Origin: an uncultured Candidatus Binatia bacterium
GTDB taxonomy: Bacteria; Desulfobacterota; Binatia; HRBIN30; CADEER01
Direction of reading: 5' to 3'
Assembly: GCA_965216585.1 (NCBI GenBank)
Contig: CBDCGC010000003.1
Coordinates: forward strand, 2,337,219-2,401,218
Length of the DNA stretch: 64,000 nucleotides
The translations under genes were made by a program, and so were the position numbers. Every line of letters starts with the position of its first letter. The first letter of the stretch is position 1. Of the stretch, positions 7,195-45,450 are shown piece after piece. The notes beneath the pieces are model-generated. The model made no database searches, had not been told where the DNA came from, and saw nothing but the letters and a program-made list of their open reading frames with translations.

Positions 7195-8283
7195 ATGCCG
7201 GGAATCTACGATCAGGTGCTCGCGTACATCGACCAGCCGGATGCGAGCGATTTCGACGACCTGGCACTGGCCGTCTTCGCTCACCAATACGCCGCCAATC
7301 GCCCCTACCGAGCGTTCTGTGAGAGCCGCGGCGCCGCGCCGAGCTCGCTGTCGAGTTGGCGCCAGATCCCAGCCGTGCCGATCCAGGCCTTCAAAGAGGT
7401 CGACCTCTGCTGCGGCGAAGCCGAACGCGTGTTCCTCTCGACCGGAACGACGGCGGGCGCAGACAAGCGATCGCGGCACTGCATGCCCGATTTGCGCCTC
7501 TATCGCCGCTCGGCAGTCGCCGGCCTGCGTCGTTTCCTGTTCCCCGACGTCGAGCGGATGAAGATGGTTTCCCTGATTCCACCCGTCACGGCGTGGCCCG
7601 ATTCATCTCTCGCCCAGATGGTGGCATGGGCGGGCGAAGACTTTTCCAGCGACGGCATCACCTACGCAACCGACGGAGAGGCGCCGCGTGTCGAAATGGT
7701 CGTCGATTGTCTGCGCGACAGCGAGCGCAGCGCCGAACCGCTGGCGATCTTCGCGACGACCGCAGCGCTCATTCAATTCCTCGACTACGCGCGCCAGGAG
7801 GGGCTCACCTTCCGCTTGCCGCACGACAGCCGCTTGATGGACACCGGCGGCGGCAAGGGAGCACCGCGACCGATGTCGCGCAAAGGCATTCTTCACGCAG
7901 TGTGGAATGCCTTCGCCATTCCGGGCTACTTCGCCGTCAACGAATACGGCATGGCCGAGATGTCGAGCCAATACTACGACTCGGTGATCTGCGATCGGTA
8001 CCGCGGCATCTTCGCGGCGCGCCGCCTGTTGGCACCCGAGTGGCTGCGCACCTGCGTGCTCGATCCAGTCGACCTCGAGCCGGTCGCCGACGGCGAAGCG
8101 GGACTGCTGTGTCACTACGATCTCGCCAATGCCGGCTCGGTGATGGCAATCCTCTCCGAGGATATGGGGAGAATCACCGGCGGCGGCTTGCAACACCTGG
8201 GACGTGCCCCGCAGGCGGAGGCTCGCGGTTGCTCACTGGCGGCCGGCGAGTGGAAGAGTGCGGCGCCAGCAGCGAGCGCCTGA
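7195..8283 (+). CDS. luxE: acyl-protein synthetase, LuxE family
   Basis: Clear similarity to LuxE: IPAVPIQAFKEV..FLSTGTTAG (compare IPVFPTSVFKF..FTSSGTNG) and MDTGGGKG (compare ITGGGWK). The ORF track starts at 6829 but overlaps the divergent gene, so ATG 7195 is chosen; start uncertain (ATG 7030/7033 also possible). Confidence 0.75.
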   Translation: MPGIYDQVLAYIDQPDASDFDDLALAVFAHQYAANRPYRAFCESRGAAPSSLSSWRQIPAVPIQAFKEVDLCCGEAERVFLSTGTTAGADKRSRHCMPDLRLYRRSAVAGLRRFLFPDVERMKMVSLIPPVTAWPDSSLAQMVAWAGEDFSSDGITYATDGEAPRVEMVVDCLRDSERSAEPLAIFATTAALIQFLDYARQEGLTFRLPHDSRLMDTGGGKGAPRPMSRKGILHAVWNAFAIPGYFAVNEYGMAEMSSQYYDSVICDRYRGIFAARRLLAPEWLRTCVLDPVDLEPVADGEAGLLCHYDLANAGSVMAILSEDMGRITGGGLQHLGRAPQAEARGCSLAAGEWKSAAPAASA

Positions 8284-39966: not shown

Positions 39967-40164
39967 GCCGGAACTATCACCTGCCGCACGGCAACCCAGA
40001 CCATGTCGCGCTCCGGCCCGATCATATTCCTTGACAATCGATAAGTCTTCTTGGGATTGTACACGTTGGCGTCGTAGGCGTTGTCGACAGACAGGAGCGT
40101 TGAACGACATATCGGTCGAGCAAACCCTCTGAACAGCGAACAGCCGTATGAACGTGGGAGCAAG

Positions 40165-41391
40165 ATGATTCGATTTCGACTGAGGCAGGAAGCCATGACA
40201 ACCATTGCAACGCGGATCGGCGCTGCCGTCACCCTCGCAGCGACCGTCATGATACAGACTTCGCACGCCTACCCGACCTACAACGACGGTATGGGTAACG
40301 GCTGCGTGCAGTGTCACAACGGCTTCAACGGAGGCACCGGTGCTTTGCACACCAATCACCGGGATCAGTTGGGGGTTCAGACCTGCAACCTGTGTCACCC
40401 CAACGGCGGCGGCACGACTCCGGTGTCGACATACACCAGCGGTACGGGTGGCGCCCTCGGCTGCGCCGGGTGTCACGGTCAGGATTACGGCGAGACGTCA
40501 CCCAACAGCGGCCAGCCAAAGGCGACCGCCTACGGCTTGCGCCAACACCACGTCAACAACGGCATCAGCTCGTGCGGAACCGGAGGCTGCCACGCGCCAG
40601 GGTCCCTCGGACACCCCAATCCCTTCCCGCCGCTATTTGGTGAGGATGAGGTGCCGCCCTACTACGATCCTATTTTCAGCGGTCTGACCGATCCGTGCTC
40701 GAGCTCGGACGAAGACATGCCTTTCGATATGGACTCTCTCGGCCTCGACAACGACGGCGACGGCGACATCGACGGAGCCGATCTGGATTGCGCCGTGTCG
40801 GGAACACCGACGGCGACACCCAGCCCGACATCGACTCCCGCGCCGACCACGGCATTGAGTTGTGGGAGTGGGCCTGTAGCCGGTTGCATCGCCCCTGCAA
40901 AAGGGGTGCTGGTCGTCAAAGAAAAAGCCGCCGGCAAGGAGAAGATCAAAGTCGCGCTCAAGAAGCTGCAGCCTGCACTCGTCCCGAATGACTTCGGCGA
41001 CCCGGTTACCGGAGCGACGGCGTACAAGATCTGTATCTACGATTCCACCGACCAGCCGGTGGGAGAGTACACCGTCGACCAAGCCGGAGCCTTGTGCAAC
41101 GGCGTGTCCTGTTGGTCGTCGATCACCAAGGGCTACAAGTACCGCGACAAGGGCACCTCGACGGACGGAATCTTGAAGATCAATCTGTTCGGCGGCGACG
41201 CCGGCAAGGGCAAGGTGATCGTCGTCGGCAAGAACAAGACCGGAAATTTGCCGACCGGGGTAGCGTCGGCAATGCAAGGCGAAACCAGCGCAACGGTTCA
41301 GGTCTTGTCGAGCGATGCCTCTTGCGTCGGCATGAATCTGCCGCAAGTCAAGAAGGCCGACGGCCTGATCTTCAAAGCTACCGGGCCCTGA
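40165..41391 (+). CDS. secreted multihaem c-type cytochrome (cytochrome-c3-like motif set) with Asp-rich dockerin-like segment, PT linker and novel C-terminal domain
   Basis: CVQCH, CNLCH, CAGCH plus CGTGGCH (CX4CH as in class III cytochromes); DNDGDGDIDGADLD; TPTATPSPTSTPAPTT linker. Start 40165 or 40195. Confidence 0.65.
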   Translation: MIRFRLRQEAMTTIATRIGAAVTLAATVMIQTSHAYPTYNDGMGNGCVQCHNGFNGGTGALHTNHRDQLGVQTCNLCHPNGGGTTPVSTYTSGTGGALGCAGCHGQDYGETSPNSGQPKATAYGLRQHHVNNGISSCGTGGCHAPGSLGHPNPFPPLFGEDEVPPYYDPIFSGLTDPCSSSDEDMPFDMDSLGLDNDGDGDIDGADLDCAVSGTPTATPSPTSTPAPTTALSCGSGPVAGCIAPAKGVLVVKEKAAGKEKIKVALKKLQPALVPNDFGDPVTGATAYKICIYDSTDQPVGEYTVDQAGALCNGVSCWSSITKGYKYRDKGTSTDGILKINLFGGDAGKGKVIVVGKNKTGNLPTGVASAMQGETSATVQVLSSDASCVGMNLPQVKKADGLIFKATGP

Positions 41392-42251: not shown

Positions 42252-43007
42252 CTACGGATCGCGATCCGCCCAGGCCTCTTCGTAGAACGCGAGAAGATCT
42301 TCGCCGAGGTTCTTGATCAACCAGCGGTGAACGAGCCCGGCGCGCGCTTCCCAACCGTCGTCGACGTGCAGCGCATGGGCACCGGCCACAGCTTCAAAAT
42401 CGCCGTGCAACGCCGCGGCGAGAGCCTGAACCTCGCCGGCCGGAGCGACTTCGTCCTCCTCGCCGGCAACCACCAGGGTGCCAAGAAACTTGGCGGTCCC
42501 ACCGGTGGGCACCGAGTCGATGAGCCGGGGGGAGGCTACCAGCTCGTCGATCAGCCCGTCCGGCTCGCGGACATCACCGTCCGGGTACGAACCCGCGAGA
42601 CCCTTGCCCGGTTGCCGGTCGGCGCGGCGCAACCTCTGCAACCATGTGCCCGAATCGCGCAGCGCCGCGGCACTGACCAAGGGCGCAAGAGCGACGACGG
42701 CGCGCACGCTGTCCCGCAGGTTCAAGGCGAGCGATGCGCCGAGATCTTGCCCGATCAGCACCGGCACCGCATCGAGATCGGCAATCGCTTCACGCAACGA
42801 ATCGTGCCTCGAGCGCAGCGACCTGCCTTGCTGCCTGTCCCAACCGAGCGAAATACAGCGCCAGCCGCGGTGAGAAAGGAAGCTCGTCATGCGTCGCCAC
42901 GAGTGGCGCGCGTCCCACAGACCGTGAGCGAAGACCAGCGGCGCGGTGAACTTCGCACTCTCCGCCTCGCTGTATTCCGCATGCAGTGGGCCGAGAGTTT
43001 GCGCCAT
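42252..43007 (-). CDS. alpha/beta-hydrolase fold protein (Asp-nucleophile type, epoxide-hydrolase/dehalogenase-like)
   Basis: LVFAHGLWDARHSW (HG oxyanion region) and IGQDLGASLAL elbow with Asp in the nucleophile position. Start at ATG 43007 (alternative 43085). Confidence 0.55.
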   Translation of the reverse strand: MAQTLGPLHAEYSEAESAKFTAPLVFAHGLWDARHSWRRMTSFLSHRGWRCISLGWDRQQGRSLRSRHDSLREAIADLDAVPVLIGQDLGASLALNLRDSVRAVVALAPLVSAAALRDSGTWLQRLRRADRQPGKGLAGSYPDGDVREPDGLIDELVASPRLIDSVPTGGTAKFLGTLVVAGEEDEVAPAGEVQALAAALHGDFEAVAGAHALHVDDGWEARAGLVHRWLIKNLGEDLLAFYEEAWADRDP

Positions 43008-43183
43008 CCACCCATTTCTAGAGAAAGCGCAGGCGAGCGCAAGGCAAGTCGATACGACGGAACCACGCCTTCGATGTACCCACAATGCGAAAAGGCTCTC
43101 CGCTTGGAGAGCCTTTCCGTGAGCCTGGTGTCTGCTTGAGAGAGAGAGAAATCTGGCCGAGTGTATGGCCCTACGTGTGCTGC

Positions 43184-43369
43184 CTACTTCTTCTTCTTGG
43201 CTGCCGAACGGGTCTTCTTCCGTGCCGGAGCTTTCTTCTTGGCACGCGACGTGCGCTTCTTCGTGGTCTTCTTGCGCGTCGCCTTCTTGCGAGTGGTCTT
43301 CTTTCTCGCCGTGCGCTTCTTCGTGGTCTTCTTACGCGTCGTCTTTCTCTTTTTCCTTGCTACTGGCAT
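43184..43369 (-). CDS. small histone-H1-like Lys/Arg-rich DNA-binding protein (repeats of RKKTTKKRTA)
   Basis: Perfect AAGGAGG Shine-Dalgarno 7 nt upstream of ATG 43369; 61 aa, more than 55% K/R: MPVARKKRKTTRKKTTKKRTARKKTTRKKATRKKTTKKRTSRAKKKAPARKKTRSAAKKKK. Confidence 0.6.
   Translation of the reverse strand: MPVARKKRKTTRKKTTKKRTARKKTTRKKATRKKTTKKRTSRAKKKAPARKKTRSAAKKKK
43215..43360. repeat. tandem 60-nt (30-nt sub-periodic) duplication inside the histone-like gene
   Basis: gtgcgcttcttcgtggtcttcttgcgcgtcg... (43251-43310) is repeated from 43311 with a single mismatch over more than 30 nt. Confidence 0.6.
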
Positions 43370-43751
43370 AACAGCCTCCTTGATGAAGCGTTCTGTGATT
43401 TCGTGACCTCTCTCATCACAGACACTCTCCTCAACAGCCACACCTCACCAGAACTTGCCGGATTATAGGGTCCACTTTGGGGTTGGTCAAGCCAGAATGC
43501 CATTTTGGAAATGATTTTTTAAAACCAATTTCTTCCATTCTTTAGCGGAAGTCTGTGCACACAGTCGTTGCAGTGCATGCGCGCAGCTTCTCCATTCACG
43601 GATCACTCGAAGACCCCAGTGAAACGCATCGGACTTATTCCACCGCCAATACATACCACAAAAATCTTGACCGTTGGTCGCTGCGGTGCCACGCACCGCC
43701 CAAGCACAACGCCGCTACGTCGTGTGCCGCAAGGGGTTGCCGCGTCGGCGC

Positions 43752-45450
<1,699 letters not shown>

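Follow-up and report, generated by a model that had tools for sequence, protein, structure and literature searches.

Several kinds of very basic protein are available for comparison with a newly found polybasic protein. The very small basic ribosomal proteins bS22, bL37, bTHX, and eukaryotic eL41 have 20 to 35 amino acids (aa), more than 50% of them basic, together with strong expression signals, fixed lengths, and nonrepetitive sequences. The repeats of AlgP (AlgR3), Bordetella BpH1, PhaF, HupB, and HBHA are tails or domains within larger proteins (above 150 aa) that have either folded domains or long arrays, and Hc1 has a length of about 125 aa. Hc1, which is small and basic, condenses DNA, and a small RNA (sRNA) restrains its translation (PMC3469542, PMC8343073); the size of Hc2 varies between strains via the number of lysine-rich repeats (PMC2848022). 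Among mRNAs, long-distance pairing between the 5' and 3' ends is a hallmark of those encoding type I toxins, such as hok and aapA1 (PMC5416894, PMC6733600). We analyzed a stretch of 64,000 nucleotides (nt), referred to below as the window, from an uncultured Candidatus Binatia bacterium (contig CBDCGC010000003.1, positions 2,337,219 to 2,401,218); the Binatota are known solely through metagenome-assembled genomes (PMC8262859). An open reading frame (ORF) on the minus strand of the window was taken to encode a basic, histone-H1-like protein of 61 aa in an original prediction made from the sequence without database searches. The gene forms an autonomous transcription unit of its own, and counterparts of the locus were found in related genomes. 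The best explanation, to which we assign a probability of roughly 0.4, is by analogy that such a unit would supply an abundant polycation that coats nucleic acid.

The ORF was confirmed on the minus strand, and there is little doubt that the gene is truly translated. The 61-aa protein (MPVARKKRKTTRKKTTKKRTARKKTTRKKATRKKTTKKRTSRAKKKAPARKKTRSAAKKKK) contains 24 Lys (39%), 12 Thr, 11 Arg, and 8 Ala residues and has a net charge of +35. It is of low complexity throughout, and neither its composition nor inspection of its sequence revealed a hydrophobic or transmembrane stretch; the peptides of the family are presumably disordered as well as of low complexity. The AAGGAGG Shine-Dalgarno (SD) sequence that had been described was present 5 nt upstream of the ATG, and the opposite strand was likewise without a recognizable gene, as a Pfam search of the plus-strand ORFs was blank. 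Among aligned cassettes of related loci (designated here by L numbers), GGAGG was located 4 to 5 nt before the ATG in 12 of 12, and an in-frame stop was present in all members, as were the core K-[AST]-KKKAPAKKK and a C-terminal KKKK. Pairwise differences within the family numbered 247, 255, and 518 at codon positions 1, 2, and 3, respectively, and the aligned coding sequences differed in length by whole codons. A comparison of L088 and L115 detected eight synonymous codon changes and one nonsynonymous change. In a second lineage (L201 to L205; 59 to 64% GC), a 20-aa peptide, MKNATKKAA(A)KKKAPAKKKK, is encoded between untranslated regions (UTRs) unrelated to those of the other cassettes. As the peptide is kept with unrelated UTRs and variation at third codon positions is twice as frequent as at the other two, selection acts on the peptide.

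An upstream in-frame GTG start, which would produce an 85-aa protein in the window, was rejected, since stops interrupt this extension in L014 and L037 and the region coincides with a conserved helix arm. These stops indicated that the stretch upstream of the ATG is UTR and not coding sequence. The gene of L001, the closest genome, is annotated by NCBI (7803-7961) as a 52-aa hypothetical protein starting from the upstream GTG. Similarly, the public calls P0001-P0011, P0027, P0031-P0033, P0037, and P0045 are 38- to 66-aa "hypothetical proteins" with upstream GTG, ATG, or TTG starts; the N-terminal parts of these calls correspond to translated 5' UTR, the true starts being the SD-preceded ATGs. 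Further members were found by a peptide profile search, all of them labeled hypothetical and all carrying spurious N-terminal extensions. The undescribed family is defined by M-x(2-15)-K-[AST]-KKKAPAKKK-x(1-4)-KKKK and consists of Lys/Ala-rich peptides of normally 16 to 30 aa.

At least 15 further contigs of the Binatia type contain the self-contained cassette, which often lies in a shared gene order (gcvH, ftsB, eno, cassette, hydrolase), and its gene is single copy, conserved, and vertically inherited. The cassette is defined by an A-tract, the 11-mer TTTCCAAAATG, a TTGAC(A/C)-17/18-TATAAT promoter, a purine-rich leader, GGAGG, a KKKAP(A)xKK ORF ending in KKKK, a helix between the 5' and 3' UTRs, and a terminator, and the window carries every one of these defining elements. 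Downstream of eno, K-rich ORFs with their own SD and terminator were present in L014 (30 aa), L037 (16 aa), L056 (59 aa), and L022 (141 aa), while in L001 the cassette was located 2.4 kb further on. The A-tract, the 11-mer, and the -35 hexamer were common to the window, L001, L014, and L037. A metagenome scan for the 11-mer plus TTGAC returned 120 rows, mainly chance matches in low-GC DNA; all nine high-GC contigs with the A-tract (9/9) held a K-rich micro-ORF 100 to 136 nt downstream. The cassette nearest to that of the window, L207, is complete and encodes a 27-aa peptide (MPVKKKATSKAKKKAPAKKKATAKKKK), and L209 and L210 represent two additional subgroups carrying the cassette. The locus is fluid: in L031 (5272-5290), eno is followed directly by the hydrolase gene and the cassette is missing, and in L210, the order is gcvH, ftsB, cassette, hydrolase, with eno missing.

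In the second lineage, the gene has a T-tract and a TTGACA-17-TATATA promoter upstream and a terminator downstream. Close to its 5' end, the leader forms a local hairpin, in which L201 and L204 differ in a compensatory manner. 5' stem-loops are known to stabilize mRNA, and mRNA stabilization fits as a common theme of the UTR structures of both lineages. The second-lineage gene was found beside an extracytoplasmic function (ECF) sigma/anti-sigma pair in one neighborhood; the other neighborhood contained a SPOR-domain protein and a sigma-54 activator.

A scan of positions 42900 to 43900 for promoters detected a single site, TTGACC-17-TATAAT, on the strand of the ORF (43490-43462), with 11 of 12 matches and a 17-nt spacer; shuffled sequences averaged 0.1. 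This site functions as the promoter of the ORF with high probability, and the position of the -10 hexamer would place the start of transcription near 43455. The sequence upstream had been described as strikingly low in GC within a genome of about 68% GC. The first part held, as the GC content of positions 43440 to 43700 was 49.8%, among the lowest 0.3% of 261-nt windows and within the sole stretch of the 64 kb below 50%; the second did not, the window having 63.8% GC. Of the roles suggested for this AT-rich island, that of a strong promoter was supported by conservation of position and sequence across the family. A small RNA found no support: Rfam gave no gathering-threshold match in the window or over the cassette in 16 related loci (matches at E ≤ 10 were at chance level only), and no conserved second, antisense, or divergent sigma-70-like promoter was found in the cassette.

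The 11-mer upstream of the promoter occurred once in the window, where 0.02 chance matches were expected, and was the same in all 12 cassettes, 8 of which had, however, been retrieved through the 11-mer itself. The invariance suggested a specific protein contact, and the 11-mer may be either a UP-like element or a regulator-binding site; it is located where the distal part of a UP element would be expected, but its sequence departs from the UP consensus. A 9-nt palindrome, AATGGCATT (43504-43496), overlaps the 3' end of the 11-mer and is centered near -46. In the form AATG[G/C]CATT, as seen directly in the sequences, the palindrome is without a mismatch in most of the family and might be bound by a dimeric regulator. 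Two further boxes, TA[AG]AACGnnCTGCTA and AACnnCATTTTAG, located approximately 125 and 90 nt before the -35 hexamer, were present in 11 of 12 members (clearly in L001, L014, L037, L088, L103, L115, L124, L139, L153, L156, and L167) and degenerate in the window (approximately 43560-43620). On the opposite strand, AACnnCATTTTAG resembles a -10 hexamer (TAAAAT), with no fitting -35 hexamer conserved. Two direct repeats, CTGTGGACAA and TGTGGATAC, separated by about 21 nt, were observed approximately 150 to 190 nt upstream of the -35 hexamer in L088, L115, L153, L156, and L167 and were not clearly present in the window. Each matches the complement of the DnaA-box consensus, TTATNCACA, at 8 of 9 positions; a link to a replication origin was ruled out, as the adjoining genes are not of the origin type.

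The promoter would drive an RNA of about 365 nt consisting of a purine-rich leader of about 86 nt, the consensus SD, the 61-codon ORF, a structured 3' UTR, and an intrinsic terminator. The UTRs were conserved at least as strongly as the ORF. Minimum-free-energy folding of 12 full transcripts gave 20 to 46 pairs between the 5' and 3' UTRs in 11 of them. With the arms anchored on G[TC]CTG and [CT]AG[AG][CT], a choice that biases the central pairs, a helix of 15 to 18 bp and -22 to -31 kcal/mol was present in each sequence. Cognate arms had a mean energy of -28.0 kcal/mol compared to -19.5 kcal/mol for noncognate arms, a difference that none of 20,000 permutations matched. Within the outer 9 bp, 86.7% of cells were paired, versus 75.1% in shuffles (0 of 500 reached the observed value); four pairs changed on both sides, for example, from U-A to C-G within the core, and slid registers gave 47% or less. 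L207, L209, and L210 retained the helix amid yet other flanking sequences. Taken together, a covarying helix between the 5' and 3' UTRs very probably exists.

G-U pairs made up 17 of the 165 helix pairs. Their presence and the single-copy, syntenic occurrence of the gene indicated a helix at the RNA level rather than inverted repeats of the transposon type. A mobile element with terminal inverted repeats was thus ruled out, the arms lying inside the transcription unit. Other approaches were less informative. MAFFT plus RNAalifold on the joined UTRs placed the arms out of register and proposed other long-range pairing, and anchored arms were used instead. RNAduplex on whole UTRs was undiscriminating, as any purine tract pairs with any pyrimidine tract, and sense versus antisense duplex energies did not decide the strand of the helix. 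A conserved hairpin sequestering the SD was also considered and failed, since the predicted probability of the SD being unpaired was inconsistent across members (0.00 to 0.78). The helix joins a purine tract of the leader to a pyrimidine tract of the 3' UTR; it would thereby enclose both the ribosome-binding site and the ORF in a loop and most likely stabilizes the mRNA and sets its ends.

Covariation was also detected outside the long-range helix. In the hairpin of the 3' UTR, two sequences had UA in place of CG at one stem pair, a change of both partners, and the terminator helix was kept with compensatory changes across relatives, in which the distance from stop to terminator was roughly 40 to 95 nt. 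The window copy is without the GAGCC/GGCTC hairpin. The first 3' UTR hairpin contains a conserved GCCATTCAC to which the G-rich motif near the 5' end of the leader (GGTGGTGGGTGGC in relatives) is complementary (43155-43170 and 43435-43449, respectively, in the window). The window departs from its relatives at both sites in a partly compensating manner (G to U paired with U to A). Pairing of the two sites would create a pseudoknot across the main helix. In addition, the G-rich motif looks like a G-quadruplex sequence with two tiers.

At 61 aa, the window protein is an expanded outlier in a family of normally much shorter peptides. Protein alignment resolved it into the family core (AKKKAPARKK..AAKKKK) and an insertion of approximately 34 residues made of 10-aa units. 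The gene had been described as containing a near-perfect 60-nt tandem duplication with a single mismatch. Instead, Tandem Repeats Finder detected a period of 30 nt in 3.1 copies with 72% matches (43256-43345). Only a 31-nt stretch (43251-43281) recurs at an offset of 60 nt with one mismatch (43311-43341); this repeat stretches to 39 nt at 92% identity, and the other 21 to 29 nt of each 60-nt unit have diverged. The expected variability in length was seen at the level of the family, in which relatives span 16, 20 to 30, 59, 61, and 141 aa. In L022, a 30-nt unit located likewise downstream of eno is present in 13.3 copies, which give rise to its 141 aa, and the expansion seen in the window is missing from L207. 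In-frame growth of a 10-aa unit of the RKKTTKKRTA type has added about 34 residues on the N-terminal side in the genome of the window.

Database searches did not connect the protein to a characterized family. With the 61-aa protein as the query, no relative was found by word-indexed phmmer, by exhaustive phmmer against 1.84 billion representatives, or in PDB; low-complexity correction probably suppresses any phmmer signal. No Pfam or NCBIfam family matched it, and exact lookups of the 61-aa and 85-aa forms returned no record. The core motif was also searched for in full-text literature, where no protein of this kind proved to be described, and searches on small bacterial proteins rich in lysine led only to the H1-like families already known. 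The Pfam HC2 model (PF07382) did not match the 61-aa protein at E values up to 10; the 59-aa relative L056 gave a subthreshold match (E = 0.024; 15.2 bits versus a cutoff of 40). The Pfam Hc1 model, presumably PF07432 (Hc1/HctA), did not match the window protein. "Histone-like" therefore describes composition only: homology to Hc1/Hc2, AlgP, or linker histone was not detected.

The resemblances to these groups were examined one by one. Hc1 and Hc2 are likewise very basic, low-complexity bacterial proteins rich in Lys, Ala, Thr, and Arg, and the length of the family, like that of Hc2, varies with the number of lysine-rich repeats (16 to 141 aa), a property that is analogous and not homologous. 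Hc1 synthesis is under posttranscriptional control (PMC3469542), and the mRNA in the window is elaborately structured. Conversely, the usual 16 to 30 aa of the family compare with 165 to 237 aa for Hc2 (PMC2848022), and unlike the Chlamydia proteins, the family comes from a different phylum, no developmental cycle being known for Binatia. The Ala/Pro/Lys repeats of AlgP, BpH1, PhaF-type KPAA/AAKP tails, and the Lys-rich tails of HupB and HBHA from mycobacteria bind polyanions, including DNA, polyphosphate, and heparan sulfate (PMC9239181), and their AKKAPAKKA-type strings resemble the core KKKAPAKKK. No KPAA/AAKP tetrapeptide array was found in the window protein, which has one APA only, and unlike AlgP-type tails, the whole family protein is the motif, with a single APA. 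Linker-histone C-terminal domains and protamines are similar to the family in composition (rich in K/A/P/T or R), presumed disorder, and presumed charge neutralization; protamines are also similar in size. The Pfam Linker_histone model of the winged-helix globular domain was not matched, and the resemblance to this bacterial family is one of analogy and not of ancestry. By its composition and likely mode of action, the family would be classed as a lysine-rich, H1-like bacterial polycation of unusually small size with an undescribed conserved mRNA architecture.

These comparisons suggested that the peptide is most likely an abundant bulk polycation that binds nucleic acid nonspecifically and neutralizes its charge. 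The strength of the promoter signals points to high expression of the cassette. By analogy, the peptide probably binds some polyanion. Nucleoid DNA would be the likeliest target, as with H1 C-terminal tails, protamines, and Hc1/Hc2, although specific binding to it is a tentative assignment. Several points weigh against the proposed function and the architecture on which it draws. The functional call is drawn from composition and analogy, and there was no sequence homology to any characterized DNA-binding or histone-like family (Pfam, NCBIfam, PDB, and HMMER). No nucleoid protein known from bacteria is as short as a peptide of 16 to 25 aa, and the conserved APA-centered motif exceeds what pure charge would need. 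The helix and family analyses drew on only 10 to 15 sequences, the helix arms were anchored, SD accessibility was inconsistent, and Binatia are uncultured.

The small size (16 to 30 aa) and extreme basicity of the peptide would also fit a polycation associated with the ribosome or RNA, neutralizing rRNA or another RNA in the manner of the very small basic ribosomal proteins bS22, bL37, bTHX, and eL41. The very strong promoter, with its A/T-rich upstream element and GC-rich discriminator, a combination seen in growth-rate-controlled genes, is consistent with such a role, as is a single-copy, conserved, vertically inherited gene. However, no NCBIfam or Pfam ribosomal family, those of bS22, bL37, and bTHX included, matched the protein, and the gene is unlinked to ribosomal or translation genes. 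Unlike these ribosomal proteins, the family tolerates large repeat expansions, and a range of 16 to 141 aa with free expansion does not fit a defined ribosomal slot. We regard this role as unlikely, and the preferred reading remains a polycation that coats nucleic acid.

The enclosure of the ribosome-binding site and the ORF by covarying long-range pairing raised the prospect of a tightly controlled toxin-type or dual-function RNA, in which the UTR clamp keeps the transcript inert, excess peptide is harmful, and a partner RNA exerts control. Type I toxin mRNAs likewise have a short ORF enclosed by pairing of the mRNA ends, a hallmark of this class (PMC5416894, PMC6733600). Conservation of the UTR sequence as strong as or stronger than that of the ORF, and the restraint of basic DNA condensers such as HctA by sRNA (PMC3469542), are in line with this scheme. 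Unlike type I toxins, however, the peptide is a hydrophilic polycation and not a membrane peptide, having no hydrophobic or transmembrane segment, and its gene is single copy and syntenic, not multicopy or mobile. Occlusion of the SD was not conserved, the second lineage retains the peptide without the clamp, and a search within the cassette for antisense promoters of the sigma-70-like type found none that was conserved. A toxin-type RNA is therefore quite improbable.

Polycations bind polyphosphate readily, and another polyanion such as polyphosphate granules might thus be the target, as for the H1-like AlgP. This lysine-rich H1-like repeat protein localizes to the polyphosphate granules of Pseudomonas and spaces them evenly (PMC9239181). 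The family lacks KPAA repeats, no genes for polyphosphate metabolism were found nearby, and nothing in the data is specific to polyphosphate; the chance of such a target is accordingly low.

A regulatory leader peptide, in which the progress of the ribosome over an ORF with 40 to 60% lysine codons sets read-through into the hydrolase gene, was suggested by the layout, in which a promoter is followed by a short ORF dominated by a single amino acid and then by a terminator and a gene. As in attenuators, a Lys-rich short ORF (39% Lys in the window and about half in most relatives) is followed by a terminator. A hydrolase homologue follows the cassette in the L037, L088, L115, L139, L156, L209, L210, and P0033 contigs, and the pair is repeated in at least nine loci. 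In five contigs (L115, L209, L156, L088, and L210), only about 5 to 30 nt separate the terminator T-tract from the first in-frame ATG of the hydrolase gene, leaving no room for a separate promoter, and the hydrolase gene is therefore probably transcribed by read-through of the terminator. Against this scheme, the cassette also stands alone or beside a different or opposite-strand neighbor in L001, L014, L103, L124, L153, L167, and L201-L205. The downstream gene, where there is one, encodes a generic hydrolase unlinked to lysine metabolism, and nonlysine residues (the APA motif) are conserved. No antiterminator or other alternative pairing overlapping the ORF was seen on inspection, although it was not systematically sought. 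Regulation of this kind has very little probability. A chance open frame in purine-rich noncoding RNA or low-complexity DNA is hardly credible: AAG-rich sequence is indeed open in several frames, on the opposite strand too, and HMMER with a single sequence finds no homologues, but the fixed SD-ATG spacing with an in-frame stop in all members, the excess of third-position substitutions, the whole-codon length differences, and the conservation of the peptide with unrelated UTRs in the second lineage all argue for a coding gene.

Table 1. Positions in the window of the polybasic gene, its transcript and promoter elements, and the flanking genes
Feature	Position	Strand	Remarks
Enolase (eno)	43752..45032	minus	Upstream, outside the cassette; synteny anchor; Pfam Enolase_N and Enolase_C
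Intergenic region from eno to promoter, bulk of AT-rich island	43491..43751	minus	Weak remnants of the upstream boxes of relatives
A-tract TTTTAAAAAA	43515..43524	minus	Found in 12/12 aligned cassettes, just upstream of the 11-mer
Invariant 11-mer TTTCCAAAATG	43501..43511	minus	About -57 to -47; same in 12/12 cassettes
-35 hexamer TTGACC	43485..43490	minus	Same position in relatives
-10 hexamer TATAAT	43462..43467	minus	Followed by GC-rich discriminator CCGGC
Purine-rich 5' UTR, about 86 nt	43370..43456	minus	Sequence conserved with L001, L139, and L207
G-rich motif GGTGAGGTGTGGCTG (GGTGGTGGGTGGCTG in relatives) near 5' end	43435..43449	minus	Nearly invariant in groups A and B
Helix 5' arm GTGTCTGTGATGAGAGAGG	43407..43425	minus	Pairs with 43150-43128; -26.3 kcal/mol, 17 bp
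Shine-Dalgarno AAGGAGG	43375..43381	minus	5 nt before ATG
Polybasic ORF	43369 (ATG) to 43184 (TAG)	minus	61 codons; protein MPVARKKRKTT...AKKKAPARKKTRSAAKKKK
In-frame repeat expansion, 30-nt/10-aa units of RKKTTKKRTA type	43251..43345	minus	Tandem Repeats Finder; 31-nt copies at 43251-43281 and 43311-43341
Core motif KKKAPARKK (KKKAPAKKK in relatives)	43214..43240	minus	Invariant or near-invariant columns, alignments A4 and A5
3' UTR hairpin GGCC-ATACACTC-GGCC	43155..43170	minus	RNAalifold consensus
Helix 3' arm, pyrimidine tract ending CAGACAC	43128..43150	minus	In the minimum-free-energy fold
Intrinsic terminator GGCTCTCC-AAGC-GGAGAGCC + TTTT	43090..43116	minus	Direct inspection; 68 nt past the stop
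Alpha/beta hydrolase	42252..43007	minus	Downstream of the cassette; Pfam Abhydrolase_6; no specific family assigned

The genes adjoining the cassette in the window were identified by Pfam (Table 1). The closest relatives of the enolase were those of Candidatus Binatia genomes, the best at 75% identity, and ftsB/DivIC and then gcvH lie beyond eno. The gap between the terminator T-tract and the hydrolase gene is 82 nt in the window. The nucleophile elbow of the hydrolase reads G-Q-D-L-G-A (residues around GQDLGA), with Asp in the usual position of Ser, presumably as in enzymes of the dehalogenase or epoxide-hydrolase type; in the L037 homologue, the elbow is GHGVGG and the nucleophile is missing. 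Further away, an ORF on the plus strand (40081-41391) contains several CxxCH-like motifs (CVQCH, CNLCH, and CAGCH) followed by a Thr/Pro-rich linker and looks like a secreted protein of the multiheme cytochrome type.

It is possible, if doubtful, that this Binatota clade has an unrecognized class of genes, each encoding a highly expressed, stand-alone polylysine microprotein (16 to 30 aa, KKKAPAKKK) from an mRNA looped by a helix, with a length tuned by a 30-nt repeat. Tiny low-complexity proteins slip past gene callers and homology searches, and where databases list this family at all, they give "hypothetical" proteins whose starts are wrongly extended. If the peptide were a major polycation, whether a bacterial "protamine" or a counterion of the ribosome or RNA, or if the clamp were a new control of translation or mRNA stability, the protein family and the RNA element would be without a described counterpart. 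The family could offer a minimal model of bacterial polycation-nucleic-acid biology, a natural bacterial mRNA closed by UTR-UTR pairing with the support of covariation, and an example of how the length of a protein evolves under constraint when repeats expand. In practice, Binatia could be recognized by the promoter-UTR-terminator unit, which could also be put to use for strong expression. Overall, the conservation, the strong expression signals, and the kept neighborhood suggest that the peptide is an abundant component in a globally distributed, uncultured soil phylum.

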